From: Octopus sinensis
Lineage: Eukaryota
Direction of reading: 5' to 3'
Length of the DNA stretch: 64,000 nt
Assembly: GCF_006345805.1 (NCBI RefSeq)
Contig: NW_021835993.1
Coordinates: forward strand, 295,759-359,758
The translations under genes and the position numbers were made by a program. Within the stretch, counting starts at the first letter, position 1. Each line of letters begins with the position of its first letter. The notes beneath the pieces were generated by a model, which saw nothing but the letters and a program-made list of their open reading frames with translations, was not told where the DNA came from and searched no databases. Positions 853 through 36,690 of this stretch are shown here, piece by piece.

Positions 853-1420
853 GAATTTATTTTTTATTATAATTACCAAATTTCTAAGAATAATATATCA
901 ATTAATGCTTCTGCTTTCAGTCAGTTCTCGTATTTTAAAAGTTTTTTATGTCAACTTTATCACTTTTTGAGTTTTATATCTGCGCTTTCCATAAACTTAA
1001 TTTCTTAACGAAGCTATTGATATATCCATAAATTTGGTAATTTAGCTTATTTCCCCCTTTAGTTCGACATTTAGGGCAGACAGATGCACCGATAGATCCA
1101 CATAAAATGCTAAATCTGCTACCCATCCATTCTCTTTCAATAATGCATTGTCCACTTTATTTTCAGTGAATAAAATAATTTCAGGAAGTTGATAAAATCT
1201 ATTTATAAAAATAAAAAAAATTAACCTTTTGAGACAAGAGTAACAGTTTCGTTACTTAGAGGTTACTTTTGTGCAATATCGAAAACAGCGGGCGAACAAC
1301 ATTCCGATAAAAATATTTCAATTGCCGTTTTGAAAAATAAAATATTTATAGAAACATAAGCCATTCGATTAAATCCTAGGGGCCACATGCGGCCCCAGGG
1401 GCTGCACTTGAGAATCACTG
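853..1420 (-). mobile_element. Internally deleted hAT (Buster/SPIN, GTF2IRD2-like) remnant with one intact end and a 27-nt intron
   Basis: Terminus cttgagaatcactg ends at 1420, flanked by GTCTAAAT. Minus strand gives PLSNETVT / SCLKR|FYQLPEIILF..ENGWVADLAFYVDLSVHLSALNVELKG. GT-AG intron at 1199-1225. Confidence 0.75.
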
Positions 1421-1444
1421 GTCTAAATGTAATAAAATTAAACT

Positions 1445-1772
1445 GCTTACTGATCGGATCCGTGGGCTTTGGCTTTTTCTTATTGAAGAATTTCCTAGAC
1501 TGACCAACAGTCTCAAGTCTTCCACGTGTTTCGTTGCAGCTGATTCTTTATCCAGGATCGACAATCTCGCCCACGAATCCTTAGTATTTTATCTTAATCG
1601 AGGATCTCTGGTGACGGTTTTCCCCGTGACACCCTACCTATACGTTTCGGATAGATCAAGATCCGCTCTTGTGCGGACCTAGCCCTGCCCTTCTATCTTT
1701 CTTCCACGTTGCCTACTAGGAATTCCGTTTGCTTAGTTCTACTTAATGAGCTCCGAAATAATCCTTTGCCTG
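1445..1772 (-). mobile_element. Degenerate retroelement-like fragment (possible RLE domain); donor of the insert at 243-327
   Basis: GC-balanced sequence reading VRTRADL..ATKHVEDL with stops. 1682-1772 is highly similar to 243-327. Confidence 0.35.
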
Positions 1773-1774
1773 CC

Positions 1775-2195
1775 GTGCTTACTTAGCCTCGATTTGTCAG
1801 CGATTCTTTCAGTCCAAAGAGTCTGGGACGAATAAATACTTTACGCAAATTTCGTTCAAAGTCGTACTAACGTGAGCTGGTCTTATAAACTGCGGTTGTC
1901 AGCCGCATGCGGGAGACTAGCTTAAAGCACTCCCTATCATCAGCACGGGATTACTACTGTACAATAAATCCTTATGGATTGGTATCTGCGTACGCTTGGA
2001 CTTTTACCCCTTGTTGTGTAAGAAGAGTTCAGGTAGAATTCCTCGTCACACTCAACTCAATGATGTTGTCAGGAGGGCTCTAGAATCGGTTGGTTTCCTT
2101 TTCACTCTAGAGCTGGTCGGCCTTTCCCGGAACGACAGCAAGCGTCCTTTCCTTTGAGGGAAGGCAAGCCCCTGGTTTGGAATAAACCTGTCGAC
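1775..2195 (+). mobile_element. Degenerate CRE-like retrotransposon fragment, related to 23027-24260
   Basis: NCGCQPHAGD*LKALP..IGICVRL..KKSSGRIPRHTQLNDVVRRALESVGF aligns by eye to NCACQPHTGDWLNALP..KKSAGRIPRHTHLNDVVKRALESAGF. Confidence 0.8.
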
Positions 2196-2420
2196 AATGC
2201 TGCATAAAACTTGCACCAACTCGGGCTGCATTTCTTATAAGAACTTTGCAAGTTACAAAGTTTGTTAGTGTTAAATGTTCAGTGGTCATTAAATTATATT
2301 CTTGATTTATATTTTAAGAGTAATCGTCTTTTAAACTATTTTAGATATTTAATAAATATTTAAATCTGTCTTCATGTCAATATCAAATTCAAAATATAAT
2401 TGTAGGCAAAGAGACGAGAA

Positions 2421-2961
2421 ATGAATAATATTTCCGAAATAACTTCTTTTCTCTACTTGGGAGGATTGGACTCTATTCATAAAATAGACCCTGCAAGATT
2501 TTCATTAGTAATAAATTGTGCATTGGAGCTTCGTGACCACATTCATCCTTCAATTCGAACAATCCATCTCAACCTCCAAGACACCCCATCTGCACTTGTC
2601 TCCAACTATTTCTTGGATTGCTGCAGAGAAATTGAAAATGTAGTCTATGAATACACCCAATGGTTTGTAGGTCAAAAAATCAGGGACTAGATGCCTAGTA
2701 CACTGCGTTCGAGGAATGAGTCGATCCGCGTCTATATGTATTGCTTACATTGTGTGGGAAAATCGACTTACTTTGAGAGAAACCTACTACTTTGTCAAGC
2801 AAAGACGTAACTGCATTTGCCCAAATTATGGCTTTTGGCAACAGATGATAGAATGGGAGAGACGTCTGCTCTTGCGTACCTCCGTCCGAATGTTGACCGT
2901 GGAATATGGAATAATTCCCGACGTGTACAGGGAAGAGTATTCCCGGCTAAAGTGGCACTAA
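2421..2961 (+). CDS. Atypical dual-specificity protein phosphatase (DUSP14/18/21-like), 2 exons (2421-2639, 2671-2961)
   Basis: N-terminus ISEITSFLYLGG. Removing a 31-nt GT-AG intron (2640-2670) restores VKKSGTRCLVHCVRGMSRSAS (HCx5R active site), followed by ICPNYGFWQQM and IPDVY. Confidence 0.92.
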
Positions 2962-3749
2962 TAATTTTATTTTATAACTATATTTATTTTGGTTTTCGTA
3001 ATGATTAAAAAAGTCAAAATGCGATACTGATCTAATTACTCGCCGAGTAAAAAGATATTTTGCCAAAAATTGTTTCCAATGTCCAACAAAATTTTTTGTT
3101 TGGATAAATTCTCAAAAATTTAAGATTTTAAATTTTGATAGTTGCATCAAATTAATTGATTCTATTTTTTGTTTATACTGTCATTTAGCGCCTTTTCAAA
3201 AAACAATATTTAATTAATGAAGAACTCGCGTTTTGTTAAAATTAATAAAGATATTTTTCAAGCTGACAAAAATTATAATACAAGTTTAATCTGTGAGGGT
3301 CCTGATCAAGGTAATTTTCAAGACAAAACGAGTAAATTATAAGACACGTGTTATAGACAGTATATATCTAGACTTTAGATGCCATTTTTGGCTTAGGTTT
3401 ACAACTATCTTGAGCTATATATACTGTTATAGTTCAGTGTCCGATGTATCGAAATTTTTCCAATTTATCGATACCAGAAAATCATATTCAAGACAAATCA
3501 AAAAATTTTTGGAAATTTCTCACAGCTACTCGACTCTTTTTCATATCATAATGGCACAATACTTGCTATTTTCTCGCAAAAAATTCATTTTAGTTTGCTG
3601 AAATTCATTATCAATCCGTACTAAGATAGGAGAAACTTAATAAGATTCCTTGAAATAACCGTCGTGATTAATCTAAAACCGACAGGGTTTGGCTAATTTT
3701 TTTGATGAAACTTTAAATTATTGATACGTAAAAACAGACAAAAATTATA

Positions 3750-3890
3750 TCAAATTGCCGGCGCATAAGATGGCCTGGCTGTTCCCCGGGCGACTCTTTG
3801 GAGAAGATGGCGAGTCTCATTGCGGTTTTTAGTTTTCTTAGCAATCTTCGTCCTCTCGGCTAAATATATTGACGATCACGGGCTGAACAA
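3750..3890 (-). mobile_element. Short degenerate 3' fragment of a CRE-like retrotransposon
   Basis: KIAKKTKNRNETRHLLQRV..GNSQAILCAGN resembles the CRE C-terminus RIAKKTNDRRVTSWLFQRI..RGN. Confidence 0.55.
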
Positions 3891-4127
3891 AACATAAAAT
3901 TTAACAATTTTACAATGAAAGACAAAAGTTCATATTTCTGTAAATGCTTAATGTAAATTAGAGTAAACAACGCTGCATTCTACCGAAATCTCAGTCTATT
4001 AAAAAGCGATATTTTAACAAAAATGTTAAATAAAATCATCATTTTCTCAAAAAAATATGCAAGGGAGAATTCTCAAAAATATTTTAAAATTTTCATAAAC
4101 ATTTTAGATTGATATAAAAATAATATG

Positions 4128-6078
4128 TCAACACATTCTGACGTGTCCGTGGGCAAAGCCAACTTTATTTAAAACACCCAATTTCTTTTCAATCATGGGC
4201 CTAGGAAATATCGACAGATCCACACCATATAAGCTCATCCGCAGTACCAATCGCAACCAAATACTCAATAACCACCTTCCTGACTTGCCCTATTCTGTGC
4301 ACTCGGTCTTCAGCCTGTGCCATAATCTGAAAAATCATTTAAAGGACCAACCCCCGGGGTCCACGACAATTCAGCAAATACCAGGTAATTAGACGAGGTT
4401 AGAGTTATTCCAGTATTGGCCGCGGTGAGGGACAGAATGGCAACCCGACAATCCAAACAATTTTGAAACTTGTCTACAAAAAGGAATCTGTTTTGAGGCG
4501 TGGTTGACCCATCAATCACGACAGTTGAGTACTAAACCATAACTTGTCATCACCAACATTTCGCAGTCCATCCCTCAGTCCGTTTATCATACAACGATGA
4601 TGTGCAAATACCACCACCTTGTCGACCGACTTTAACTTGTCCAGAAGGTATTGACTATTACTCATAATTATACTCCATACCATACATATCCTAATTTCAA
4701 ATTGGCACTCTGCTGATAAAGCTCAAGCAGAGCTCCTCTTTTATAATTCTTGTTATAATAAACCAGGTAAATACCTTCAGCTCTTCAGGAGGACTTCCAA
4801 CGTCCAAATCGACCTTGAACCTCTCCTTTGATGGCAACTGATCTAAAATTTCTGCCTTGAGTCGTCTACGTGTTAAATCACACCAACATGACCGAAGCAT
4901 AACAATTTCATTAAGGACAATCCTCAGTTCGGTCTCATTGGACAGTCCATCAAAGTCATGTCCCCACAATGTCTTTTTCCCGGCACAGTAGCGCATCCCA
5001 AACTCATAAAAACCCGAGAAAAGTGTGGGGAACAATGCGTAGATCTGAGGATACAACTCGACAGGTCTCGACAGTGCAGGGGTTCCACTCAACAAGAGCA
5101 CATATTTAGCACCCTTAGTGATACTGAGGACGCATTTAGAACGAGCAGTCGACATATTTTTGACGCAATGGGACTCATCCACAATGACGAACTCAAACTG
5201 AGTTGCTTCATTGACTCTCCTAATCAGCATTTCGTAATTCACGATGACAATATCAGCCCCATTCAACCGATCTGACTTGGAACTGACCACAGTAAGACTG
5301 AGGAAAGGAAGCCACTGACTCACGTGCTTTCCATGGCCACACAACAACAACCTGTACCCACGTGTGCTTCACGGTGGCAGGACAGACTATAATCGTCTTG
5401 ACGTTTTTGACGTGGTGAGCAAGAATGTAGATTGCCTGCAGTGTTTTGCCCAGGCCCATTTCGTCGGCAATGAGCAGTCGACCTCCCCGGGACTGAAACA
5501 CCCTTCCGTGGTAATCGCAACCATACTGCAGTGACTCCAACTGGAAGGGCATGAGGTGGTCGTGTAGAGGACGCTTCCAGTCTTCAAGCAGAGGCTCCTC
5601 CATTGACTTGGATTTTCTCGAAAGCAACAATTTCACGACTTGGAACGGAATTCCCTCCACGATGAATCCATTTTTGAGGGACGACACTTAAATATTTAAA
5701 ATTAAGATTTTACGGATCTCAAAGTATTGGAGGAGAGGGAATGTCCATCTCTTGGCCTTAGGATCTTTGATATAAAGGAATTAAAATCAAACCATAATTT
5801 TTGGAGGATTGCATTTTGAGTGCTTCGACGATGACGGGAGAATACTCAAAGTCTGCTCTGAAGGATTCCACAGACCAGAGTGAGAGACTTATTTTCAATT
5901 GGGGAATATTTCTGGGCACTCCAATTGTATTGATGGAGAGTTTATTGTTCAAAGGGTTTTGTTCAATTGCTGGTCTGGGAGGTTGCTTTCCCCTCGTTTC
6001 TTTTAATTTTTCGATTGCTCTGAGTCGGTTTAACTCGCATTTCTTTTTTTGTTCATTACTAAGTCCTGATGAAGACAT
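4128..6078 (-). CDS. SMARCAL1: SMARCAL1 (HARP) annealing helicase, multi-exon with ~24-28 nt introns
   Basis: RPA-binding-like N-terminus [17 protein letters not shown]; HARP KNY|DPKAKRWTF; SNF2 motifs [27 protein letters not shown]; [16 protein letters not shown]; GTADELIW|PMIEKKL. Introns include 4201-4225, 4866-4892 and 5503-5526. Confidence 0.93.
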
Positions 6079-6161
6079 AACAACAGGCGGGACTGATAAT
6101 TTATTTATGTCTATTAATACAAAATAAAAAACAAATATAAAAATTAAATCATTGAACACTC

Positions 6162-7148: not shown

Positions 7149-7225
7149 ATAGAAATGTTTATTACTAAATTTGTTTAAATTATTTAAACAACTCTGGAAA
7201 AAAGATATTTATAAACAGAATAAAA

Positions 7226-9099
7226 TCACGAGTCAAAAACAGTTGAAAAACATTTGGCCATTCTCTCATGGACGTTGAAAAAGTCATTTCTCTGACCACC
7301 CATGCGCTCCAAAAATCCTAAGCTATCAAAAGACAAGTAGAATACCCTCGACGACCTTCCTGACCTCCTCTAAACTCCCCCCATGGATGCATAACCCCCC
7401 TTCGACTCTACTCCTCACCTGACAATCAAGTCAACTCGAACTTGTTTATCAGCGCATATTTCAATAATAATACAGTCCACCAGCTGTAGGACATACAATC
7501 CCTCCTCCAGCAATCCAAGTTCCTCCTCAGGACTGTCGCTCGTGTCTTGCTTGAGTGATGAAACTTTTTTGATGTACTCAAAGTGATATTCCAGCAAACG
7601 CTCGACCTGCCACTTAACAAAGAGATTACTTTTTCATAGTCATTTTCGACAAATTTGGCGAGTACTCTGTTCAACTGATCCCCACCACAACACCACAGCA
7701 AGGAGAGGACAACTGAGAGGACATGTTCTAACAAGTCGAAAGCACACACTCACCCACGACTTGTGCTTTGGAAGGACCAGATGAGGGGACGACCACATTC
7801 ATGAAGAATGGAAACAAGCAGCGCAAACCCAGAACTTGGACATATTGCTGGCAACACAGGACATCCTCATTCCAGACAGGAAGTAAAGGCATGGCATAAC
7901 TCAATGTCTTGATTGCACTAAATTTGGATTTCTTTTTCCCCCGAATAAGCAAATTCATTAGCTGAAGTCCTTCCTGTTCCACAAATCGAGCCCTGTTGGG
8001 AGGAAACATTAATCCACTGCATAGACAATCAAACACATTCTCCATATACTCACTCTCCTCCACCGACTCGGGGTCACGTTTTCGAAAAGGCTAAAAGTGA
8101 CCCCAATTGACACAACTGCTAATTGTCTCAGTAAAACATCCACTCCATTGATAGACCCAACCATTTCCCGCGCTTCTATCAATCAATTTGAATAACAACC
8201 ATCCTCTGACTGCATGAATATGGCCAATATCTCAGAACAGTACAACTTGTTGTCCTCAAACTCGACTTTCTTCCAGTCAGATGACAAGACAACCTGTAGT
8301 CTACCCACAATCCACTGAAGAAAACCAGTCTTGGAAAACTGGAGAATCAAGTCTTGGCGAATGTCCACCAAGTTCTCGACGATGCCTAAAATAAGTCCTG
8401 TTTCATAAACCGAGGACATTGTGGACTCCCTGAGCTTCCTCCGTCACAGACTCGTCTAGTCTGCCAAGTACGTCAACCAGGAGGGATATCAAATGTTCGG
8501 CCAACTTGAATATCACACAAATATGACAAGGGAGTCGATGAACTGGTTGATTATTTGACTGTGTTCTTCCAGGGAATCAAAGTCGGCAAATTCCTGAAGA
8601 AGATCAACAACGGCAACGACAATGTCTGAACTGGTCCAAGTAGAATACCAATGTTAGGATGTGACAGTAGTCCAAGTAGAGACTTTAAGGATTGCATTTG
8701 AATGAAGACCTCAAATAGATCTGGTCTGGTGGTAATCACGTTCAATTCCTGTATGACTTGGTTGAGTTGAATTTCGGAATCCATGAACCTGTTTACATCA
8801 ATTCACGGACCCCACTTTTCTGGGTGATTAGGGAACTTAATTCTCATTTCCTCATTTTTTGAAATTTTCTTTTCAAATTTAAGGATCATTCGTTGTAGGA
8901 CTGATTCATTGAAATCTTCAATCTACAAATACTCGTGATAATTATACAATCTGGGTAGGGTCGGTGAGAGTCACTTTTGGCTGTGTGTTTTCCAATGACA
9001 CGTGTTCGTCTGGGATATTCAATTTGATTCTTTTACTCTCCCCGGATGTGTAAGATTTCTATAATATTTAAAATATCAACTCACGTTCATGTCACACAT
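7226..9099 (-). CDS. CTNNBL1: Beta-catenin-like protein 1 (Prp19/CDC5L spliceosome complex), multi-exon
   Basis: MILKFEKKISKNEEMRIKFPNHPE|FMDSEIQLN, NKLYCSEILAI, EESEYMENVFDCLCS, EGLQLMNLLIR, AKFVENDYEK, GLYVLQLVD. Fragments are joined by ~24-30 nt GT-AG introns. Confidence 0.93.
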
Positions 9100-9184
9100 C
9101 GTTCGATTAATTTATTTAATTTTATGTTTTTATTAAAAAGAATTTTTTCGATTAATTTTAAATTTAAACACGAGACCTATCGGA

Positions 9185-9720: not shown

Positions 9721-9819
9721 CGAAGGAAAGGCCAGCAGCCTGGCGGATCGTCAAACTGTTTCCCTGAATAACGCCAATCGAGAACCGCTGAAAATGATGA
9801 AAATTGATGAAATTAATTT

Positions 9820-10520: not shown

Positions 10521-10623
10521 TAAATTCTTGATACTGATTCATTAAAAATATTTAAAATTTAATTTGTTCAAATTACTCTTGAAATTAATGAAATTGTCTT
10601 TATTAGATTCAGAACAATTTTTA

Positions 10624-18182: not shown

Positions 18183-18207
18183 TTCATTTTAATTAAAATG
18201 CAGAAAA

Positions 18208-18598: not shown

Positions 18599-19727
18599 CA
18601 GAGGTTTCCAATGGGGAGGCGCGCCTCCTAGGAGGCGTTGACTCGTGTCAAGGGAGGCGCGAAAAGTATTTCAGAAACATTTTTTAGAAAATTATATCTA
18701 TGTAAAAACGTGACTATATTCCGATAATAAGAGTTATTAATTAAAATTATATTTTTTCAAAAATTTATTAATTTATTAGACAATTAAATAATTTTAACAC
18801 ATGAATAAATTCTTGAGTGTTGCAAAAGAAAATTCACGTTAATAAAGATTTTGACGATGGTTCAAAAAACAAATGATTGGAATATAATCAATACACTCCA
18901 AAGACAAGAAAATACTTCCATCTTACTTATTGTTGGATTCACACGTATCTTTGTGATTCTATGGAAAAACCCCTCTGTTTTGCTTTGCCTTCTAAACTCT
19001 TGCAGCAGATAGTATGAGGCCCATGCAAATTAAAAAACATTTTGAAACGATCATTCTGAACATGAAAAAATTGGTATTATGGAAATCAATATTACAAAAA
19101 ATATCTATGACATGTTTCCACTTTTAAACACCTTTTGCGCCATAGTGAACATTGAAGCAAACAAAGACATATTTGCTGAACATTTGGATTGTTTGTTGAA
19201 GCATTTTGCTCACTATTTTAAAGATCTCGACTGTAAATGTTCGAATGGATACAGAATCCATTTATTGATGAAGAAGATAATCATTTGCATTGACAACTTT
19301 TGAAAAGAAAATTGATAGAATTGTCATGCGATACATTATTGAAACAAAATTTGAGAGAGAACCGCTAATTTCTTTTTGGTTGAATGTAAGAACGGAATAT
19401 GAAATTTTGTCGAATAAAGCAATGAAAGTTTGTTGCCATTTGCTACTTCATATTTATGCGAACTGGATTTTCTGCACTAGCTGCAATAAATCTAAATATC
19501 GAACTCGTTTAGTAGTGACTAATGAGCTAAGAGTAGCACTCTCTGCGATGACACCAAGATTTGAAAAACTTTGCGCCAAGATGGAAAAAAAATTATCTCA
19601 TTAACTTTTTGTTTTAAAAATTGTTTTGATAAAATAATAATTGTATTATATTATGGAATATAAAGGGAGGCGCAAGATTGTACTTTTTCTCTAAGGGAGG
19701 CGCGTAAAAAAAGCTTGGAAACCTCTG
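18599..19727 (+). mobile_element. Non-autonomous hAT (Buster/ZBED5-like) internal-deletion derivative
   Basis: TIR CAGAGGTTTCCAA..TTGGAAACCTCTG; TSD CTCTATAA/CTCTATAG (7/8); subterminal gggaggcgc repeats; BED-like N-terminus joined to hATC dimerisation remnants (FWLNVRTEYEILS, KSKYRTRL..LSH). Confidence 0.9.
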
Positions 19728-21262: not shown

Positions 21263-22461
21263 AGCTTGCAATTGTGTAATATTTAAATTTAATTTTACTA
21301 AGCAAAATAGCCAAATTTGGTCCAATTACCTTTATAGATTAAAAAAGATATTTCCAGATTAGTCATTTCTATCTATCACGCGATAAATGAATATTATAAA
21401 TTTCACTCTGGAGAAATAAAGAATGGGAAATCTAATAAAGAAATACAGTCAGCAAAAATAAAAACTGAACAAGCATTTTCTCACGAATTTACTATGAAAC
21501 AATATCTAAAAAATAACTTCTACTGATGTAAAACATTAAATAAAGTATTGTTTATTTTTTTGTTTTTCTAAAAAATATTTTATTTATACAGGTTTTTCAT
21601 TCATTGATAATTCAGAACCCAAAAAACTGAACAAATTTATTTAATATCTATTATGCCCTCTATTAGCTCTAATTACATCTAGTATTCGGCCTGGCATGCT
21701 ATTAATAAGACTTTTTGCTTATTCTATTTTAAGTTCATTCCAAATAGATGATATTTCTGCAAATAAATGTTTTTTTCACAAATTCTCTTCCTTTATTTTG
21801 TCTTTAATAGAGGCACAAAAATTATATATAGGGTTAAAATCTGGGCTTTGTGTAGGCCAGTGATTCTCAACTTTTTTTTTGGTGTACCAAAAAAAACGTC
21901 AGTGTACCAACCCAAGTTATTTCGTGTACCAAGGAAACTAAGACTTATTTAATTTTTTAATTAATTTTATTGACTTAAAATTTTTTTTTAACTATTTAAT
22001 GAGAGCCTTGATTTTCATGCATTTTAATTAGTTCCTGAATATCAGGATCCAAGCGTGTTAAAAATAATCTGACATCTCCTTGCGAGTGAATATCAAGCTG
22101 TTACGTTCATCGCTCAATATTCTGTTTATTACGCTGAATCCCGATTCCACAAGATATGCTGTTGGAAAACATAATAAAATTTTAATTATTTGTTCCCAAA
22201 TCTTTGAAAATTTGTCTTTAAATTCCATTTTTCGCCAAAAGGTAGTCAAACCCTGGTTTCAAACAAAATCTTGTAAGAATAAATATATTTAATTTCTATA
22301 AAAAATAATATGATAAAAAATACGAATAAATTCATCTTGCAAATCCATTTGCACCTCTTCAGTGCTAGTCAAAAAAGGATTTATCATCCATCTTGGTATT
22401 TCCATATTAATCACGTCTTCAAATCTGATTGTCATTTCCTTTTCCAAATTAATTAGATGGT

Positions 22462-22679
22462 TTACTATGAAACAATATCTAAAAAATAACTTCTACTGAT
22501 TTAAAACATTAAATAAAGTATTGTTTATTACGCTCCAAAGATCCTAGGGAATTTACATTCCTAATCCAAAGGATCCTGTTGGCCGTTGTGCGTGGGAACA
22601 GCTGTTCCATCCGGCTTGCTGGCCGATTAATTTCTGATTAATTTAACCTTAAAAATGGAATTGGATGCCAATATTTTCG
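22462..22679 (+). mobile_element. Chimeric insertion: ~69 bp copied from 21488-21556 plus a CRE 3' fragment, flanked by a 10-bp direct repeat
   Basis: ATTAGATGGT at 22452-22461 and 22680-22689; SKDPREFTFLIQRILLAVVRGNSCSIRLAG is a CRE C-terminus; removal restores hAT FVDHLINLEKEM. Confidence 0.75.
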
Positions 22680-23026
22680 ATTAGATGGTCAACAAAAATT
22701 TTTATATCAAATTGATTAAATGCTTTACATACTGGATATAGAAAATCGCATTTGCCTGATTCAAAGTTATGTCTATAATTCTTTAACTTTTCACAGAATG
22801 TAATTATTGTAACTCTGACGTCAAACATAGTTACAAAATCTCCCTGCAATTTCAAGGAAATTTCATTCAATTTAGCAAAAATCCAATTTAAATAATAAAT
22901 ATATTTTTTATTTTTGGAAATCGATCTTGCTAATTCATCTTCATTATGTCCCAACATATCTTGTAAAACAACTGCGAGAGAAGGTATTATTAACGATTCA
23001 CCCGAAACATGGGTAGCATTATTTTT

Positions 23027-24260
23027 TTTTTATTAAGTAATTACTTTAATTTTCTAATTAATGGGGAATAAGTTATACACGAATTAATAAAGAGCCTGGA
23101 GGTCAGCTCAAAGTCGCCGCACTGCGTATCGAGTGGCAGTTTCCGCGGAGCACTGCGACCGAGATTCGCTGGAAGAGCCAGCTCGTCACCCTCCGGTCGT
23201 TGGTCTTCTTGGCGATTCTCCTGGCAATGTCGGCAAGAAGGCGAGTCGCAGACCTGCCGACAATTCCAGATGTTTCGAAGGCGAGGGGGACAAACTCAGA
23301 TGTTTCGAAGTCCGAAATATTTCCATACTTCGACCTCTTAGCCTCCTCAGCCTGAGCACTGGCGGAACCCGGGTTACTGATGGACTTGAGTAACACCGAC
23401 GCGGAGAACGAGTCAACACAAGTTGCGTCCCAAATCAGGGACTTGCCTTCCCTGAAAGGGAAGGTAGTCATCCCGTCAGGACGCTTTCCATCACTCCGGC
23501 AGAGACCGACTGGCTCTAGAGTGGAGGGGAAACCTGCCGACTCTAGTGCCCTTTTCACGACGTCATTGAGGTGAGTGTGGCGAGGAATTCTGCCAGCACT
23601 CTTCTTGCACGAGAGGGCGTGCAAACCGTTCGGAGAGATCGTGGACCCGCACCGGCATGGGTGGGGCTGACAGATGTCCAGGCCCAAGCGTAAGCAGACA
23701 CCAATCCGTAAGGATTCGTCGTCCAAGAGATGTCCCGTACTAGGGGTAGGGAGTGCATTGAGCCAGTCTCCAGTATGCGGCTGGCAAGCGCAGTTGAGAG
23801 ATGCCAGTTGGACTTGGTCCAACTTTGACCGGAGTTTGCACAGAGTGTCTGAGCAAAAGACTTTGTCCCAGTTCTTTTGGACTGAAGGGATCGTCGGAAA
23901 AACCAGACCGAGTGACGACCAAATGCGCGAGGCTGATGAGAATTCGGAAAGCTCGTTGAGTTCGAGAGAGGGAAAAAGAACCGAGCAGACCGAATTCCTG
24001 GATGCTGAGGTCGAAGAGAGATAGCAAGGCAAGGCTAGGTCCTTGCAGAAGCGAATCCCGATCCCCCCGAAACGTATAGGTAGGCACGCACGGGTAAGAC
24101 CGACGCCAGTTAGTCTCGTGTTGAGATGGGATACCAGCGAGGTGAGGATAAGATTGTCGATTGCAAGTAAAGCATCGGGAGCCACGAAACAAGGCGAAGA
24201 ACGGAGGATGCATGTTAGCCTCGGGATAAAGAGGAAATTCCACAGCAAGAAAAAAGCCAT
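23027..24260 (-). mobile_element. 5'-truncated CRE-like retrotransposon with uninterrupted 385-aa ORF (RT C-terminus, CCHC, RLE)
   Basis: LPIRFGGIGI, CRCG..HALSC, DGKRPDG..WDATC, FETSG; poly(A) tail; 14-bp TSD GTAGCATTATTTTT (23013-23026, 24261-24274). Removal restores hAT KNNAT|HVSGESLIIP. Confidence 0.93.
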
Positions 24261-25071
24261 GTAGCATTATTTTTAGCAACAATATGGGCAATTTTGTAGG
24301 ATGCAAGTAACCCATCTATGAAATAGGTTAAAAGGAATACTTTTTCGCGCAAGAGCATGATGAGTATTAACTTTTGAAGAGTGGTAGGTTCATCAATCTT
24401 GTTTTTTATATTTTGAAAATATTCAAGCGAAGATCCGACTAGATTTGGATCTCTAGTCCTCAAATGGTGTATTAATCTTGATAATTTCATTGAACTATTG
24501 GCCAAAGAAATTTTGCAGATCATGCAAAAAGCCCTTGATTTGTTTCCACTGGAAGGGATAAATCCATATTTCAGATATTCTTTACGATAAATCCGAGGCG
24601 TACATGAATTACCACCAGACATGTGATTGACACGAGTATTTATAGGTATCAAATGATAATAATTAACCATCGTAATGTACTAATTACTGATAATAAAAAA
24701 ATATTAAAAAAAATAATACCATGTACCAATTTTTTTTTCCATGCACCATTCGAGTATTTTCCATGTACCAAAAATGGTGCACATGCACCACAGTTGAGAA
24801 TCACTGGTGTAGGCCATGGTAGCAATTCAATATTATTTACTTGAAAAAAGCGCCTTGCTATTGCCGAAGTATATTTCGGATCATTGTCTTGTTGGTAAAT
24901 ATGATCTTGATTTCGATTTTGTTCAGAAATGAGATAAGATTATGCATTAGTATGTTAACATACAAAGCTCCATCTATCTTCTCTTTTATCCAAACCAAAT
25001 TACTGAATCATTTATGTATATGGCACCCCATACGATAATATTTCCTTTACCGAATTTTTTTAATTAAATTA

Positions 25072-25442: not shown

Positions 25443-26793
25443 CAGGGGTGTCAAACTCATTTCGCTTTGAGGGCCGCATTTTGTAACAATTTCGCTTCGA
25501 GGGCCGCATTTATAATAATTTCTCATTAAGGGAAGATTAGTTCTGATATTTATTATTAAGAGAAACTAAATTATTGAATTATCGCCCTTTAATTTTGGTG
25601 AGAGCTGCTTCCAGAGGATTGACATCTTTTTTTAGATACAATTTTTGATATGTCAGGCTGAACTATTCGTGTAGTTCCGACTTTTATTAAAGAGGATAAA
25701 TGTTCATCAGTTAGTCTTGTTCTTTGAGCAGTTTTTGTCATTTTCATAACTGAAAAAAGCTGATCACACACAAATGTCGAACCAAACATAGCAATGATTT
25801 TTGTCGCAAACTTTCGAAGATATGAAAAGAAAGCAGGTATTCCAACCTCCAAATATTTAGCTTTAAGTATAGAATCTGATTGTATTTCCAATAGTTCCAT
25901 TTGTAAACTTTCATCTACATTGGAAACATTAAAAGAGAATGGTGATGCGAATAATGAAAATTGTTGTTCAAAAGACGAAAAATCATTAAATCTTTCTTGA
26001 AATTCCTTTAACAACGATTCTAGTTGTTTTTCATACTGAGAAAAATTCATTACATTATTTGCATCAACAGTACTCCTGAGCTCTTTGCACGTAGGAAAAT
26101 AAGATAAATCTTCATTTAATAGCTGAAACTTTCATAATTTTATTTTCGAAATAAAAAACTTGATATGATCTGACAACTAAGTTATGAGCTTGTCTTTGCC
26201 CTGCAATTCTAAATTAAGGTCGTTCATATGTGTGGTAATATCCACTGCAAATGCCAAATGTTTGATCCAAGATTGACTTTTCATTTCGTCTGTGTTTTGC
26301 CCTTTCATCTCCATAAATAAAATTATTTAAATCTTTTAACAACTTTGTGAAGAGTTTGTAACGCAGATAAATTTTTCGCAATTCATTTAGCATTGAAACA
26401 CGCATTGGACCTTCTTGGTTAATAAGCAACTTAATACCTTCGAAATAATTGTATGATAGATGATTAGATTGATAATGCCTCTTTAGGTTGTATTCTTTCG
26501 GTATAGCGATAAACTTGTTACATATCAAACAATGTATTTTTCCATCAACCATTGTGCAAAAATAGAAAAGTTCCCATTTATCTTGAAACACTCTCCGTTC
26601 ATCTTTCAAAGAGCGTTTCTTTTTTATTCAAGAAGAAGCACGTGACATTAACAAACACGATTTAAAAATACAATTAAAAATTTTAATTAAATGTAAAAAA
26701 ATAAAAAATAATTTTTTGCATTTTATAGCCATTAAATCAGACCGCACTTATGTTTGGCAAAGTACGCTGAGGGCCGCATGTTTGACACCCCTG
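25443..26793 (-). mobile_element. Non-autonomous hAT (SPIN/GTF2IRD2-like) deletion derivative
   Basis: TIR CAGGGGTGTCAAAC..GTTTGACACCCCTG; perfect TSD GTTTAGAG; RVFQDKWELFYF..CLIC..KEYNLKRHY; MFGSTFVCDQLFSVMK..RTRLTDEHL. Confidence 0.93.
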
Positions 26794-26914
26794 GTTTAGA
26801 GAAACCAATCAGCAGTTTAATATGTCGTGATCCATCCTTCCGACCGGAGTGAATTCAATTTTTCTTGACGTGCCAATTTCATTAATTTGATGAAAGCTAA
26901 TAAAAATTAATATT

Positions 26915-27420: not shown

Positions 27421-27845
27421 CTACATTTAAAAAATCTAAAGAGTCAGAAAAGTGAGAGAGGTGTGGAATTCAATCTTTTGTTCACTTTGAAGGCTCGGAA
27501 ATTAGTTTTTTTATCAAACAAAAGTAAATTTAGAAAAAAAGAGCACGGTCAAAAGGCATTTCCAGTTGCATGCAGGATGAAGTATGCATTGCCGCAAACG
27601 ACAGCTATTCCAATTTGTTGGAACAACTGTAACACTTCCAAAAAACTTATAACAACAAAAACAATAAGCGCGATGCAAAATTAGAGGAACTTAGGTAACT
27701 GAGGTTTCGCGTGTGCCAGCCGCACAAAGAGAACCTTTCATTAGAAAACAAGAGCCGATACTAAACCACTCAGCTCCCGAGAACTTATTAGGCAAATAAT
27801 TAGTATCTTTTTATTAATAAAGTTAATTTTGTGATTTTTAAGAGT

Positions 27846-29461
27846 TTATAGCTCTGAAATTTGATTATCCTCGGGTTTTTGAATTGCCCATTCTTGAATT
27901 GTTGCACCTGCGTAAACAAGGTAAACAATCAATCCGACAAGATGTATTCCCAGCATTAATAAAAATACATTTTGCCATTCCCGTGGATTATGCTATAACG
28001 ATTTTATAAAAAAAATTGTCACTTACAGTATCTGAAACGAATTGATACGATGTCTGAATTGCAATGAGACCAGAAATTGCTCCCACAGTATTGCCGACTC
28101 CAGAAATGATGCCATAATATTGAGGAGCAATATCCCCAATATTACCCATCGTTACTGGAACAAAAGTCCCTGAGAAAAAACAAGCAAGGATAATCAGAAA
28201 GACTCCGTAATAGTATTTATTAGGATGAATAAGTGTTGCAAATAACAATAATATGCTCACGGGTAACAGGGCTGTGTCAATTGTATAAAATGCATCAAAC
28301 CAATAGTAGCAGCAATTTTTCTTGTTCTTAATTTAGAAATCGAATATTTTTTTTGAAAAAAGTCGGACATCATACAAGCAATAGTTCCTCCAATCCATGT
28401 TACCAAAGGAATCGTGAAAGTAATATAAGTTTGCTTTAATACAACAAAAATTAGTTACATTTTTGATACTAATGTAATACAAATCCTTCATCATTGAAGG
28501 GGCAATTGTCACAATAAGAAAGAAGCTCCAACCGAACGAAAAAGCAAAAAACATAAGTGCTATCAAAGGAATAGACTTTACCATCTTCATTACTGGTATT
28601 TTCTAGTTGTTTATAAATGATTTAGAAAACTTTGATGTTTGTGACCTGCTTTCTTTCGACATTTATTGCCAAAAAGAATTTTTCATCACTCGTGCTCCAT
28701 CTGTGGGTTTTAGGGTCATCGCTAGCAAATATTATCCATAAAATGATCCAGATAACTCCAATAATTCCTAAAATAAGCATTTTATTAACTCGCCTAATAT
28801 ATAAAAAGATATTCTCCACAATGCCACGTTTTTTGCAAGTCCGGAAGCAAGAAACAAAGAAAGAATAGTACCAAAATACGTCCCTACATAATTGAAAATC
28901 TATAACTGACCAGGAAACATTAGTCCTATAGCAGAAACTCTGTATTCTGGAGGAAACCAATTAGCAGCAATTATCAGAAAACAAGGAAAAAATACTCCCT
29001 GACATACTGTAATCTATTCAACCTGTACGGCTCCTGTTAATATTCTGATTACTACAAGAACATATGGTGATGCATCAAAGGCGGCTGGAGTTGCGAATGT
29101 CAAGGCAGAAGATACAGATATCGATAAAAGCAGAATGATTTTTGGACCGTATTTTTCTGCTGCGACACCGCCAATGATTTGTGTAAAACAATATCCGGCG
29201 TAAAATGACATTAAGACTACAGCTTTTTGAAAGTTAGTCCATTCAAATATCTAAATTGACCATGAATTTATTCAACATTTTTTTCAGATGCATTTATTGA
29301 CACTATTTGTGCGACAACAACGTTAATGTTTTGCCGTTGCATATACGTCACTGCAAGGCACCAGAATGTGCCAATTCCCATAATTATTCTTCCCCGGATG
29401 GATATCTTGTCTAAATGGATATTATTTACTTAATCATACTTTTTGACAATGATGATTCCAT
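27846..29461 (-). CDS. SLC17-family (sialin/VGLUT-like) MFS anion transporter, multi-exon
   Basis: YMQRQNINVVV, FEWTNFQKAVVLMSFYAGYCFTQIIGGVAAEKYGPK, WFPPE, DDPKTHRW, DIAPQYYGIISGVGNT, IQEWA. Micro-introns include one GC-AG (28768-28793). Confidence 0.9.
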
Positions 29462-29571
29462 TTGATTATTTTATGATTTCTTCGTTCTATTTAAATGCTC
29501 AATTGTGGTTTAATTGTTTAGCGTGGTTTCGAAAAATCAGCTTCATTAATTTCATTTTTCGTTTGTCAACT

Positions 29572-29690
29572 TTAAGGTGTATACCACAATACCCACTTTG
29601 ATTGTTGTCTAGCACAAGAAATCCGAGTGGTTTACGATAAGGTCACCGGGGAGATTATTATCTTGAAGTGAGCATCACATGGCCAGATTG
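29572..29690 (+). mobile_element. Small R4/Dong-like RLE fragment
   Basis: Nucleotide similarity to 27080-27190 (gataaggtcacc.gggagatt; DKVTGEIIILEVSITWPD). Confidence 0.55.
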
Positions 29691-29762
29691 TATAATCTCA
29701 TAGTAAATAAATTTATTTCTGCTAGATAATAGGTTAGTTTCTGGTATTAAAGTACACTAGAG

Positions 29763-30802
<1,040 letters not shown>

Positions 30803-32003
30803 CACTAGAGTGTAAAAAAAGGCTTCGTGGAATTTGAGATGTCTGGCGACGATTTTGGTTACCCTTCTTGGGAATAATTGTTAACTTATTTTCGGTTTAG
30901 CATAATTGCCTCTCAGAGAAATGAGCTTCGGGAATCATGGCTTTAGAAAAGAATTTTGATTGGAATTTTTTGCGAAAACAGCCAAACAATCCACTCTACA
31001 TGCAAATTTCATAATTTATTCTTCAAGAACAAGAGAGTAAGTAACTATTAATTCTAATTAATTCGAAACTGCCATTTCATACGCAGCGCTACGTCAAAGA
31101 GCTGACCCGTAGGCTCTTGACAAACACCTTTTAGTCGTAGTTAGTCGATTTTGAATATTGTATTTTGTTAATGTTAAAAAATTTGGATGTTCATTAATTT
31201 TAAAAAACCTTGCAGTTCTGTCAACTTGACTAAACCTTAAAAGCTTTAAATTCTTTAATTTACAAATTTCGCATAATTTCTCAAATCTTAATACACTCAA
31301 CCCTTAAAATTGACTACATTTTATTAGGTATATAATTCAAAATGAAAAGATTATTTGATTAGTTTTATTATTGGGAGATATCCAGAGCATTAATTCTGAA
31401 TATACCCAGGGAGACTCGCTCGGCCAGATACCATTGCTCGGATGGGTAATCATCTCCATAAGTGACCCCTTGTGTTGGAGCAGGCTTCAAGTGGAAGGTT
31501 CCTGTATTCCAGACGTCTTGACTGCCAGGAGGAGAAAAACTTCGCCATTCTCAACATCATCATATTTCCCAAATTTCTTCTCTCTGGCCCGTTCAGATGA
31601 GGGTCCAGGGTTTTTGAGTGATCACGTATGTTCTGGGCGGAAAAGGAGTTGACGTACGTGACTTCCCAAACCAGACACTTTTCCATTTGAATGAAACAAA
31701 TTATTGTCGAGAGGCAACCAGATATCTCACAATGGTAAGAGTTTAGCCAAGCACCGCTCAAGGACTGGCTACTCATTTTTAATCATGTTAGTTGCCTGGT
31801 TCCATGCGTTAATTCAATTCTTTGTACGGTTTGGTGTAGATTCGAGATGTCCATTGCGATTGCAGAATTGCATTCAATAGGCAGTCTTAGTTTTTCCCAA
31901 GTGGCAAAACAATCATTCATACCAAACGACAAAAATCTTCTAAGCTAATAATATGTATATTTCTTTGCTAAGCAGAGTAACATCTTTTCGGGAACATTTA
32001 GAT

Positions 32004-32220
32004 ATGTGGTTCTCAAACCGGGATACGTAAGATTCAGTAGAGGGTACCCAATAAAATTTGAAAATTTATATGATTAATAAACAACGTTGATTAACAAAAT
32101 GTCATCGATCTCATTAATTAAAAAACTTTTCTTCTTAATTGTTTAAAATTCAATAATGGTTACGAGAAAAATTATTTAGACGCCAGAAGTACGTGAAACA
32201 AAAAAGTTTGAGAACCACTT
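32004..32220. mobile_element. hAT-type MITE (~217 bp)
   Basis: Inverted termini gtggttctcaaac / gtttgagaaccac; TSD ATTTAGAT/ATTTAAAT (7/8). Confidence 0.8.
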
Positions 32221-32377
32221 ATTTAAATGGTAGATGCCTTGGAAATGTCCAAGTAATCGAATGACAAAGTTTCTTCGAAATCAATTGCCTTCTGAATTGT
32301 TGATTTTAGACTATAGACTACAGCTCCGTCCTATTCGAAAGTCTCATTGGTGATGCATAAACACATTTTCTCTTCTA

Positions 32378-33426
32378 TACCATTTACAAGTCAATTTTGC
32401 AGCTGAGAACATCATTTTTGCAATCTGGAAATTAAATTTGCAGTAAAGAATGTCAATTTCAGTCAAGAATTGCGGTTAGGAAAATCATTTTTGCAATCAA
32501 GAAATTAAATTTGCGGTCATGAAAACCAATTTTGCAAGTGAGAAATTCTATTTTGCAAGAAATTTTTATTACAAAAAAGAATGAAATGATTTATTAATGA
32601 ATACAAAAAAAAGAAGTCGGTCATGTGTTCGAAAGTCTCATGGGCGGGAAGCCGACGCGATCGAGAAAGAATTAGAGCGTACTATCGCAAGGGATATCCG
32701 CTCAAAAAACCATTTTGATTCGCGGGCGTCGCCTGTGATAGCAAACATGCGGGACCCGATCTCCTGAACGAAGCTGATTGCCTTACTCCCCAAGGAACCG
32801 AATAATTGAATTGTCAGTTAAATCTTCACATCGAATAATTGAGGGGTAATATCTCTCCATGGAATTAGTACTTCTTTTGCCTCAATTGCAATCCTCAATT
32901 GAAGTAATTCAATTTTTTTATTTTTAATCCAATAATATGCGGTCCTTTCTTTCACTCCCAGAGACCTGCATAAAGAGCGCCAATCTCTATCGTGTGTGTC
33001 TATGATCAATTTCCGTTTTTCCATTGAATATTTTCCGTAATGTCCTCTTCCTTGTCTGTTTATGCAAATGTCTTCTGTACCATTTTCTTGTGAATTTTCG
33101 AAGGCTTCTCAATTTTGTTTAATTTTAAACGCAAAAATACTTCATATATATTGTTTAAACGCATTAATGTTGCGTCAAGGTTATAAAAAATGAATTTGCA
33201 AAATTGAATTTCCTGCTAACTAAAGTAATATTCCTACTTGCAAAATTGATTTTCCTAGCCGCAAATTTAATTTCCCACTTGCAAAACCGATTTTCATGAC
33301 CGCAAATTAATTTTCTTGATTCCAAAATTGACTTTCTTAACCGCAAAAATCATTTCTTACTTGCATAAATGAGTTTACCTACCGCAAATTAAATTTCGTA
33401 TTTGCAAAATAGAGTTGTAAATGGTA
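32378..33426 (-). mobile_element. Tc1/IS630-like element with inverted subterminal ~21-bp repeat arrays
   Basis: TA|TACCATTTACAA..TTGTAAATGGTA|TA; degenerate ttttgc(a/g) 21-mers at 32390-32560 mirrored at 33195-33410; HTH-like GRGHYGKYSMEKRKLII..DWRSLCRSLGVKERTAYYWIK. Confidence 0.75.
32642..32800 (-). mobile_element. CRE-like 3' fragment nested in the Tc1-like element
   Basis: Reverse-complement near-identical to ~21101-21256. Confidence 0.8.
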
Positions 33427-33932
33427 TAGTTGATTCGTTTTGTCATAATTTTTTCTACAAGTCTCTAAATTACTGGCAACAGGATGGAAACTGCTGGGCA
33501 GAATAGGTTTTAAAGGTTCATTAATCATTCTAACTTCTAAGAAGTTTTAAAAATTTAGAGATAGCCGGAGGCTTTTCAAAAGAAGTGACCGAAGCTCAAG
33601 TTCATATTCTGCCAGGCTGTCTTTATCCGAACACTCGGGTAGGTTTATCTCGTGATTCGAAGGTGATCATCCGATAATGCCTGGATTGTGGAGTCAGACG
33701 TACTCTTTGAGAGCATCGACATCCACGGATTCATCAGAGAAAAATTCAACTTTATATATGTTACGCGATGTTTCTGTGAAACAATGACCATGTAGTATTC
33801 GTGATACTAAACTATAGTGGTATTTTATGAAAATTTGGATTTTGTGTTATATATCGATTAAATACTATTAATAAAAAAATTGTATTTATCAATAAAAAAA
33901 TTAAAATACATTTGTTTTGTTAGACCAAAATA

Positions 33933-34471
33933 ATGGATGAAAGCTCCCCAGCTGCGGTGAGATGATTAAGATCATTTAAAGAAACGATTATACAAGGAGT
34001 TGAGATCTCTCATGGATAATCCAATTGAGGGACTGGACTTGAACATTAATGAGATTTGGAACAACATCAACTGTTGGACTGTAAATATAACTGGATCCAT
34101 CAACACAATTTATGCCACTGAAAATTTTATTCTAAGATTAAATTTCAACGAGAGTTACCCGTTTAAACCACCACTGGTAATGTTTATTCCTCCACACGTG
34201 CCTGTTCATCCACACGTCTACAGCAACGGACATATTTGTCTCTCTATTCTGACAGAGGACTGGTCTCCGGCACTTACCGTGTCTTCGATTTGTCTGAGTA
34301 TTTTGTCAATGCTGAGTTCATGTCAAACTAAGGTCGTTGCCTTGTTTACTGATTCCAGGAAGCCCCATTCGACAACTCATTTTATGTCCGCTCTTGTAAC
34401 AGGGATCCCAGGGCTACCAGGTGGGACTTTCACGGTAAACTGTTTTCTAATCTTTAGACGACCGTGTTTGA
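33933..34471 (+). CDS. UBE2W: Ubiquitin-conjugating enzyme E2 W, 4 exons
   Basis: MDESSPAA|KRLYKEL..HPHVYSNGHICLSILTEDWSPALTVSSICLSILSMLSSCQTK|EAPFDNSFYVRSCNRDPRATRWDFH|DDRV*; introns 33957-33981 (25 nt), 34333-34358 (26 nt), 34435-34457 (23 nt). Confidence 0.96.
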
Positions 34472-34733
34472 GTCACGTTTTCAGTTTCTCTTACATTTTA
34501 ATATATTGATTCAGTTTTTCTTGTTACTGCTAGGTTTCACGTAATACTCAGGACAGATTGTAGTTCATTATATACTGAGCATTACTGTGGTGGCATGTAT
34601 CTGTTTTTACCACATCGGAAACTGAAGGCTCTTTTATGGTAGAAAACTTGCTGAATGTGGACTTTTGGGACCTTAAACAATACGATGCCTCTAAAACAGA
34701 GGAATTGATTGTATAAATCCAGAAACTTTAGAT

Positions 34734-36690
34734 CAGGGGTGCGCAAGCTTTTTGGGTTTGCGGCCGCATAGCATTTTTTTCCTTCTCTTCCACGGCCGCA
34801 CACTTATTTTTTCGATATTAATATAGTAATTTTTTTAATTATTAAAAGTGACCGCATAAGTTGCCCATTGTCATCGAGACCGAATGAGTTCTTGGACAGG
34901 AAATGCTCTCGTTCATCAGGGACATCATATTATTAAAATAAATAATTATTTCATGGACAAAAGATAAGAAAGAAGGAAAATTAATTAAAAGAAATGTATT
35001 ATACAAGTTATTCTAATGACGGCCAGGATCTTTGGTATTTTTTGCGAGCTTATTGAAATGCACTGGTAGGGTAGATATCATTATGCGCAAACATGACTCT
35101 AAGTTTGCATCCGTTATCCGAGATCTATATTGACTTTTTAGATATTTCATTTTGGAAAATGTAGACTCACATAAATATGTGAGTGCATTTAACTGATTCC
35201 ATGATACATCTTTTCACAAGTTCGCCGTCTGAAAAAGGTTTTCCAGCAGATCCAAGGATATGAGCAACTCGAAAGGATGCTTCAACTCTTGCATTTGCCA
35301 CATTGCATGCTATCGTTGTCTGTTTCGACTACGAAGTATTCACTTTCCCAGTTGATATTAAATTTTCTTTTTTCTTCATTCAAAGAACGTCGTCTTTTAA
35401 CAGGTAAAGAACGTCGCCTTTTAATGACATAAATCAGCGGTTCTCAACCTTTTTTTAGACTGGGGACCACTTTTGCACTATAAAATTTTGTGGGGACCAC
35501 CTTAAATAAAATAAACATTTTTTGGTATTAGTGCACAATTTTTGGCCTCGTCAGGGCCAGACATGTTCGAATATTTATTATAACAATAACATGAACATTA
35601 TGAAAATAACAGAAAATTTAATAGTAATTTAGTGAGATTTCTGATCTTGTTTGCTCAGAATAATTTTACTTATATCAGGCTCTATGTTCGACAAAGCTAC
35701 TCGCATATCATCTTGTACCCGTAGTCTATTTCTATATTTTGTTTTTAGAAAAGTCAGACACGACATCGCCATTTCACAGTGATAAGTAGTGGGGAATGCA
35801 AGTATTGATTCCAATGCAGTTTTACTCAAAATGGGGAATTCTTTCGCCATCTGACACCTAACAATAAAAAGTAATTATTAATGAGAATACCAAAAATCTA
35901 ATAATGAAGTACATTTGAAAATAATCTGAGCAGACTGATTACATTGAAGTTCAATCAAGCTCTGCTGAAAATTGAGTTCCTGATATTCTTTAAATGAGGT
36001 CAAGAAAGGTTGAACGATCCAGTTTGGAATTGGGTCTTCAACAGGAAAATAATCATCAAATTTTGTCTTGAGATTTTCCAGATGTTTGATTATCAGACTT
36101 AGAAGAACATTATCCGGTGGGTTGTGTCCGAGATGATATTCAAGCATTGGGAACATTGATGTTATTCCTTTTTTTATTTTCATTATCCACAATAATAACT
36201 TTTTTTAAAAGCCATTATTATTTGATTGACCTCGACAATTGATATATAAAGACCTTTAAATAAATTAATAAAAATTTTACCCTGCATCGAAAATTCCTGG
36301 GGACCACTAAAAATTTTCTGGGGACCACGATTGAGAACCGCTTGATTAATTTCAATGTTTTTGATTTATACTTAATTGTACAATTAGTTTTAACTTTAAT
36401 ATATTTTTATTTTTCGAAAATTCCTAGGGACCACTAAAAATTTTCTGGGGACCACGGTTGAGAACCGCTGACATAAATAAATTAAGCCGTTTATGATAAT
36501 TACTTTTAATAAAGGTTAACCATTATATAAAAATAGAATTGTATTTATTATGAATATTTTTAATTATTATTTAGGGTTTTTCTTGATTAATTAACACTAT
36601 GAGCATTATATTTAAGATTAGTTGCTCGATGACCTAATTGTGCCCACGGCCGCACATTCATCGACTCACGGCCGCACTTGCGCACCCCTG
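34734..36690 (-). mobile_element. Non-autonomous hAT (SPIN/GTF2IRD2-like), heavily deleted, hosting a nested hAT
   Basis: TIR CAGGGGTGCGCAAG..CTTGCGCACCCCTG; perfect TSD CTTTAGAT; KRKFNINWESEYF, ASFRVAHILGSAGKPFSDGELVKRC, TYLCESTFSKMKYLKSQYRSRITD. Confidence 0.92.
35435..36470 (-). mobile_element. Nested non-autonomous hAT (Buster/ZBED8-like) with duplicated terminus and two micro-introns
   Basis: TIR CAGCGGTTCTCAAC..GTTGAGAACCGCTG; perfect TSD ACATAAAT; LDFW|CQMAKEFPILSK..FPTTYHCE..KTKYRNRL..SH; introns 35858-35890 and 36254-36280. Confidence 0.92.

Follow-up and report, generated by a model that had tools for sequence, protein, structure and literature searches.

We analyzed a stretch of 64,000 nucleotides (hereafter the window) from contig NW_021835993.1 of the assembly GCF_006345805.1, which is labeled Octopus sinensis. 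The window contains several hAT DNA transposons, two host genes, a fragment of a non-long-terminal-repeat (non-LTR) retrotransposon, and a long satellite array. In five of the transposons (elements A to E, table 1), an earlier note had described short AT-rich segments, beginning with GT and ending with AG, whose removal restores the transposase sequence. This description was borne out for all seven segments, each of which lies on the minus strand, starts with GT, ends with AG, and shows the length and junction peptides that had been given for it. We consider it rather probable that such AT-rich GT-AG segments of 20–33 nucleotides (nt) are spliceosomal introns, gained repeatedly after intronless hAT elements had entered what is likely a dicyemid genome.

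Probable Short Introns in hAT Transposase Genes

The five segment-bearing elements belong to the Buster/SPIN type of hAT transposons, with terminal inverted repeats (TIRs) and 8-bp duplications of the nnnTAnnn type, the other end of element A having been lost. Identical 8-bp sequences flank each of elements B to F, and 14-bp TIR matches were found at either end of full-length family A copies and, in the window, of B, C, D, E, F, and G. TA occupies positions 4–5 in 47 of 48 distinct perfect 8-bp duplications. The transposases (~590 amino acids, aa) group with Buster/SPIN proteins in phylogenetic trees, among Buster and GTF2IRD2-like proteins, and the D-D-E, CxxH, and RW motifs are visible in the A and E translations. 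Each family search returned at least 40–85 matches, with TIRs and perfect duplications retained. Because the window copies are internally deleted derivatives, the segments were tested on longer copies. Full-length copies of family A (about 2,080 bp) and family E (2,346 bp) have three introns each, family D has two, family C one, and family B at least five.

Four of the seven segments (introns 1 and 5 of B, intron 1 of D, and intron 3 of E) would break the frame or introduce stops if retained. The other three (intron 2 of A, the C intron, and intron 2 of E) are in-frame and stop-free, and for these the basis is homology, since a profile of outside transposases excises each one in family copies. 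Intron 1 of B, which had been regarded as a weaker case, turned out to be real: it belongs to the same element as intron 5, has a modal length of 25 nt in 11 of 15 distinct copies, and seemed in-frame because the window copy lacks one upstream base. Intron 1 of D lies in the unconserved N-terminal tail, so that reading-frame logic is its sole support; its removal connects the conserved start with an ATG further upstream, which 18 of 19 distinct copies possess, and its GT..AG ends are likewise kept in 18 of 19. The length of A intron 2 is 19–27 nt over 16 distinct copies, 12 of which have GT..AG. The C intron, which measures 29 nt in one copy, is by homology the weakest case of all.

Origin of the Contigs

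The window very probably belongs to a cobiont from the dicyemids, which inhabit cephalopod kidneys, and not to the octopus. When the 2.72-Gb octopus-labeled assembly (G000) was searched with families A to E, 316 of the 317 DNA matches listed (40 candidates were scored per search) lay on contigs numbered above 30, the sole exception being a 73-bp hit at 78%. CTNNBL1 is present twice in the assembly, occupying roughly 20 kb on the chromosome-scale contig C3 and about 1.4 kb in the window, and an 18S search revealed genes of about 2,600 nt on chromosomes together with one gene of 1,667 nt on a small contig. For the nine introns of the SMARCAL1-like gene of the window, GT-AG ranked top of 256 end pairs. 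The GC content of the cobiont contigs is 0.36–0.37, and a value of 36.7% has been reported for Dicyema japonicum, with 49% repeats (PMC6736024). Reported dicyemid introns have a median of 27 nt (PMC6543705), or a mean of 26.2 nt in Dicyema (PMC2222250). Among 51 animal genomes, introns this short were found in myxobolids and Dicyema only, and the splice signals of Dicyema are reduced to about GTa..AG (PMC13644364).

The small contigs of G000, including C12464 (the window), C1794, and C8702, form a large set that is apparently a dicyemid genome under octopus-named gene models. A protein 98% identical to family E has the source label Octopus sinensis, and a protein search for the host taxon returned only the window contig's own gene model. 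This public model (P0241) has SNF2 and CTNNBL domains although the window shows two separate genes, which it apparently fuses. Neither these contigs nor the gene models on them are likely to be from the octopus, and standard annotation of genes or repeats misreads them.

Compared with the window, contigs of run X1 show a divergence of about 9% and 6% in two host genes (27836–29535 and 33895–34510), but of only 1 base in 412 in element E (35876–36287). Possible reasons are that E has recently spread among related dicyemids or that the sample was mixed.

Distribution of the Probable Introns among Transposon Families

To survey introns, profiles of 96 Buster-type and 83 SPIN-type outside proteins were aligned to DNA, with short GT-AG introns (18–50 nt in the first run, 18–45 nt later), frameshifts, and deletions allowed. 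The sample comprised about 1 Mb, including 400 kb of untargeted contig sequence and 30 protein-search loci. This profile-guided aligner replaced a parser that maximized open reading frames (ORFs) without homology, over-calling introns and missing in-frame ones.

Among the 34 clusters obtained, 6 were from octopus chromosomes and 28 from cobiont contigs. Introns were found in 12 of the latter, and in 9 of the 13 with at least 300 aa aligned; many of the 16 intron-free cobiont clusters are short fragments. The total is 26 introns of 20–33 nt, one to five per bearing cluster, with a mean AT content of 0.81 (0.68 in exons). Included by hand was the 5' intron of D; sporadic single-copy calls in damaged copies were dropped, as were two B calls at columns 375/376, which correspond to a 90-nt insert. 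This insert occurs in two B copies (L034, minus strand, about 2897–2986) between direct repeats of 8 nt, and could represent either a longer intron or a small inserted element. The suggestion that the sizes match host introns was upheld by the SMARCAL1-like gene, whose introns span 24–28 nt (P = 0.08 for the difference in length).

Intact hAT families without introns are located on the same contigs. Family G has several copies with a 585-aa gene, and further SPIN-type matches, known from their frames alone, have stop-free frames of 589–619 aa. Among nine Tc1-like copies, one has a convincing intron, a 27-nt GT-AG segment with a stop and AAG|G context in a transposase at L008:1872–3692 (minus strand), which is absent in the eight others; intron gain is therefore not confined to hAT elements. 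In 33 non-LTR retrotransposon copies (31 kb), four calls were made, none of them AT-rich, with a profile built from the same copies. This weak test, which gave no convincing intron, agrees with the earlier remark that no such segment was noticed in the retrotransposon ORFs.

Evidence for Splicing

Judging from alignments and reading frames, we are highly confident that the segments are spliced. Over 28 cluster representatives, whether or not they contain introns, the alignment gain was larger for GT-AG (303.8) than for any other of the 256 end pairs (263.5 for the runner-up; 83.8 ± 57.1 for the others), and GT-AG was also first overall for 12 intron-bearing copies. Retention would cause a frame break or a stop in 21 of the 26 segments (B intron 1 taken at its modal 25 nt), and base +3 is A or T in all 26. 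The segments occur in full-length family copies, which speaks against copy-specific insertions. Five A copies (L116, L119, L121, L124, and L127, of 25 loci) and the I copy L205 are lesion-free from end to end only after removal.

Comparison of the family H copies L188 and L190 gave 0.306 synonymous (dS) and 0.057 nonsynonymous (dN) substitutions per site, that is a dN/dS of 0.19 (0.15–0.22 in three exons), and the ratio was 0.19–0.23 over three pairs. Intron 1 of this family measures 26, 28, or 31 nt in three copies. Since dN/dS is low in all exons despite this variable length, selection has acted on the spliced frame of this family. The ends, size, and selected frame agree with U2-type spliceosomal introns.

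Run X1 has a flat depth of about 40–50 on single-copy host genes and of thousands on transposons; E intron 2 is bridged with the segment present, and no joint falls at an intron among the 15 of 67 joints listed. Thus, X1 behaves as DNA and is uninformative on splicing. No precise junction of a processed (intron-lost) copy was detected at any of the 26 introns among the copies found, many introns being represented by one copy.

Likely Repeated Gain of Introns

In 80 outside Buster loci (metagenome, DNA-pattern search), we found one plausible intron, together with two or three doubtful calls that are not AT-rich. The former is a clean 97-nt GT-AG intron in a metagenome Buster transposase (L213), at a site of its own. 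None of ten octopus-chromosome hAT loci has an intron. Each of 17 mapped intron sites is spanned by 69–85 outside loci, and 18 or more extra bases were observed in one locus at one site only. The segments are therefore absent from outside relatives.

In the phylogenetic tree (a quick search with support from the Shimodaira–Hasegawa-like approximate likelihood ratio test, SH-aLRT, only; fragments O, Q, and N left out), intron-bearing families appear in six places: C; A; I and B; H and J; E and K; and D, each beside outside or octopus proteins. Six label changes, at least four of them forced by starred branches, are needed over nine intron-bearing families. Because outside relatives lack the segments and the bearing families fall into at least six lineages, repeated gain is likely, and the earlier proposal of gain inside this lineage finds support for several lineages.

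The earlier note had also held that the intron positions are non-homologous. This is true of the seven positions in the window, all of which differ; genome-wide, five positions are common to several families (E/K/D, two in H/J, B/Q, and A/R). Site sharing tracks kinship for H/J (47% identical), E/K (49%), and B/Q, so that some gains must be old. Family A has one of its sites in common with fragment R. Family D has an intron at the E/K site, though it is unrelated to E/K in any part of the protein, and the common site is likely a parallel gain. A chimeric origin of the shared site in D was considered and rejected, as E ranks only 77th of 122 for the N-terminus of D. After shared sites were collapsed, 21 independent events remained.

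The nearest sampled relative of the I/B/Q/P clade (L205, L034) is an intact intronless hAT family on octopus contig C5 (L192), at 36–42% identity; this weakly sampled relationship possibly reflects an old host-parasite exchange.

Insertion Sites and a Possible Mechanism

The exon ends in AG before 8 of the 21 independent sites and resumes with GT after 9 of them, against a background of about 4% (P = 2e-6 and 7e-8). At host introns, AG precedes 2 of 26 and GT follows 1 of 26 (P = 0.03 and 0.003 vs. the transposon sites; 17 of the 26 were parsed from reading frames with no use of homology). When the same sites are scored for their resemblance to AG|GT in intronless relatives, 8 of 17 already rank in the uppermost 10% (P = 4.5e-4), and the site used by both D and E/K is in the 99th percentile. 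Preference for AG|GT is a known proto-splice-site pattern of new introns (PMC3151243). At AG-preceded sites, duplication extends beyond AG|GT in 5 of 11, which is not clearly above chance in AT-rich DNA.

Introners (intron-generating transposons) are a known source of new introns (PMC9860276, PMC12130899). An origin of this kind was rejected here: the 26 introns show no more mutual similarity than shuffled sequences (best pair score 13, shuffled mean maximum 14.9) and have no copies elsewhere in 438 kb (one outside hit, vs. 1.0 for shuffles). An origin by tandem duplication also had no support, adjacent-exon identity being 0.37 and 0.35.

A reasonable hypothesis is that the ordinary host spliceosome, using signals of about GTa..AG, would remove the segments. 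An AT-rich insertion of roughly 25 nt, most plausibly filler from double-strand-break repair, could then be a spliceable intron at little cost, and an AG|GT target would supply or strengthen both intron ends and so be a favored insertion point. As DNA transposons move as DNA, a gained intron would be copied on and inherited by daughter families. Such gain would be near-neutral and would accumulate with residence time, with no requirement for it.

Alternative Explanations

Several points weigh against repeated gain of spliced introns in a dicyemid. GT-AG ranks only 19th of 256 for C alone and for I alone. In family A, dN/dS is only 0.47–0.59 when subfamilies are compared, and it exceeds 1 for one close pair (two synonymous differences). 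None of the full-length E copies examined is fully intact, the remaining E copies have small deletions, and an AG to AT change at the intron-1 acceptor is common to four of eight compared copies (L003, L006, L008, and L013). Removal by the host spliceosome is something we infer, no spliced read having been seen. The cobiont taxon is likewise inferred, as there was no named dicyemid sequence among the protein-search results. No source sequence or duplication was found for repair filler. Furthermore, the closest outside relatives are only about 36–51% identical, and both tblastn ranking and ORF-based gene calls favor uninterrupted relatives. With relatives this distant, found by methods favoring open frames, inheritance from lost donors keeps some weight. 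The E subfamily with the altered acceptor has nonetheless spread, and was likely copied in trans.

Such inheritance would mean that the introns are real but older, each family having arrived with ordinary longer introns that later shrank along with the dicyemid genome. Host introns of Dicyema are indeed reported to be shrunken and at conserved positions (PMC2222250), L213 indicates that Buster elements gain introns elsewhere too, and no close relative was found. However, at least six separate intron-bearing donors would be required, all 17 sites are intronless in the outside loci (bar the one unexplained extra stretch), the L213 intron sits at a different site, and most intron positions of the I/B/Q/P clade, which is cobiont-only, are family-specific. 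We therefore regard this explanation as unlikely. Selected gain appears quite unlikely as well. It supposes that unspliced transcripts are poorly expressed or silenced, so that intron-bearing transposases out-replicate intronless ones, much as the earlier note had suggested that expression or escape from silencing needs splicing. The share of intron-bearing cobiont clusters among those with at least 300 aa aligned is far above that of outside loci, the D and E/K site was apparently hit twice, and intron-dependent protection is known in human cells (PMC8770142). That suggestion did not hold up against the intact multicopy intronless families (G and the open frames of ~600 aa) on the same contigs, or against the eight of nine Tc1-like copies without a convincing intron. 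Moreover, intronless host genes are reported from Dicyema (PMC2222250), and the five or more introns of B exceed the single one that would suffice. Since intact intronless hAT families coexist, splicing seems unnecessary for survival, and it is simpler to assume that introns accumulate near-neutrally in DNA elements of long residence.

It is very improbable that the segments are not introns, but AT-rich insertions fixed in dead, passively copied elements and selected by an aligner that seeks GT-AG. In favor of this view, five of the 26 segments have neither a frame break nor a stop, high scores are also reached by AT-rich end pairs, and the aligner makes false calls (three doubtful ones in the 80 outside loci, four in 31 kb of retrotransposon frames). 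On the other hand, none of the 256 end pairs outranks GT-AG, the sequence beyond a frame-breaking segment is still under purifying selection, and sister families at 47–49% identity keep GT..AG at the same codon while the interiors are no more alike than shuffled ones. Repeated gain of spliced introns thus remains our favored interpretation.

Comparison with Known Systems

Intron-bearing transposases are also known from Ac, P, and Tol2. The present elements resemble the Buster family (TcBuster; AnBT, CrBT, HvBT, LcBT, LlBT; and the SPIN/GTF2IRD2-like branch) in TIRs, duplication, and a transposase of ~590 aa. Buster-family hAT elements are described as having short TIRs and an 8-bp nnnTAnnn duplication (PMC3499496), and five described active Buster elements have one ORF each (PMC12637253). 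This single ORF is kept by family G, whereas 12 clusters have one to five micro-introns. BuT2 of Drosophila is likewise a mobile hAT whose transposase gene has several exons (five by prediction), but it belongs to another hAT group (Tip) and has introns of about 58–154 nt according to the listed exon coordinates; it concerns one lineage and no repeated gain (PMC3942097). The Tc1-like TLEWI of bivalves likewise gained GT-AG introns in a normally intronless transposase within one animal lineage, but is low-copy, lacks TIRs, and was proposed to be domesticated (10.1101/656579). The present elements are multicopy, with TIRs, fresh duplications, and many lineages, and show neither the low copy number nor the TIR loss of domesticated transposases. 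In plants, both gain and loss of introns are described for mariner-like and CACTA transposase genes, including a gain in grass mariner-like elements; CACTA shows mostly loss from a four-exon ancestor (PMC4158355), whereas here the ancestor was likely intronless, the introns are 20–33 nt, and the genome is that of an animal. Dicyemid host introns are similar in size and GTa..AG signals and lie at conserved positions where examined, whereas the transposon introns have no outside counterpart, are richer in AT (0.81 vs. 0.65 in the SMARCAL1-like gene), and have stronger exonic AG|GT flanks. In the open-access literature, we found no paper on dicyemid transposase introns or structure, on dicyemid contigs in the octopus assembly, or on repeated sub-35-nt intron gain across many mobile Buster/SPIN lineages in one animal.

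Other Features of the Window

The coordinates of elements, introns, and genes are listed in table 1. Three further repeats were observed. At 36287–36469, family E shows a 127-bp tandem repeat of its own 5' end, including a second TIR-like start. At 32375–33429 lies an element whose long inverted arms are imperfect and consist of 41-bp repeats. A 169-bp satellite (154 copies, 98% match) extends from 37980 to 63996, up to the contig end.

Table 1. Features of the window (positions counted from its first nucleotide)
Feature	Position	Strand	Description
Element A	972..1420	-	SPIN-type hAT, internally deleted, 3'-truncated; TIR CAGTGATTCTCAAG at 1420 (5' end)
A intron 2	1199..1225	-	27 nt, phase 2, in-frame, stop-free
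SMARCAL1-like gene	4158..6069	-	Host gene; 9 homology-supported introns, 24–28 nt (size reference)
CTNNBL1 gene	7250..9100 (limits approximate)	-	Host gene, compact
Element G	18599..19727	+	Buster-type hAT derivative; family transposase intact, intronless, 585 aa (contrast case)
Element B	21858..24806	-	Buster-type hAT, identical 8-bp flanks, interrupted by non-LTR retrotransposon fragment
B intron 5	22296..22323	-	28 nt, phase 1
Non-LTR retrotransposon fragment	23024..24260	-	387-aa open frame; inside B with 11–13-bp duplication; no intron
B intron 1	24316..24340	-	25 nt, phase 1
Element C	25443..26793	-	SPIN-type hAT, internally deleted, identical 8-bp flanks
C intron	26411..26437	-	27 nt, phase 1, in-frame, stop-free; 6-nt direct repeat across ends
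Element D	29763..30802	-	Buster-type hAT, internally deleted, identical 8-bp flanks; family with 2 introns
D intron 1	30571..30594	-	24 nt, phase 0, in-frame stops
Element F (sixth hAT)	34734..36690	-	hAT derivative, TIR CAGGGGTGCGCAAG, identical 8-bp flanks; harbors E
Element E	35435..36470	-	Buster-type hAT, internally deleted, nested in F
E intron 3	35858..35890	-	33 nt, phase 2, in-frame stops
E intron 2	36254..36280	-	27 nt, phase 1, in-frame, stop-free

Implications

Clear intron gains in animals are scarce, and their ancestral state is usually uncertain. In the present case the ancestor is likely intronless, a single genome offers numerous independent lineages, and the divergence of families provides a relative clock, so that the rate of gain, the preferred targets, the frequency of parallel gain, and the minimum workable intron size could be measured. 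If repeated gain is true, these transposons would document the origin of new introns in animals, for which few records exist. We see an even chance that dicyemids, so far noted for intron shrinkage only, are an active intron factory, in which any long-resident intronless DNA transposon gains introns of 20–33 nt at AG|GT (within 1 Mb, no fewer than 21 events spread over at least six hAT lineages, plus one Tc1-like element), sometimes twice at the same codon. As the splicing of such short introns is not expected in other animals, each gain would then lock the element into the parasite and bar its return to the octopus. A horizontally mobile element can in this manner adopt host-specific splicing, which may end its mobility between species.

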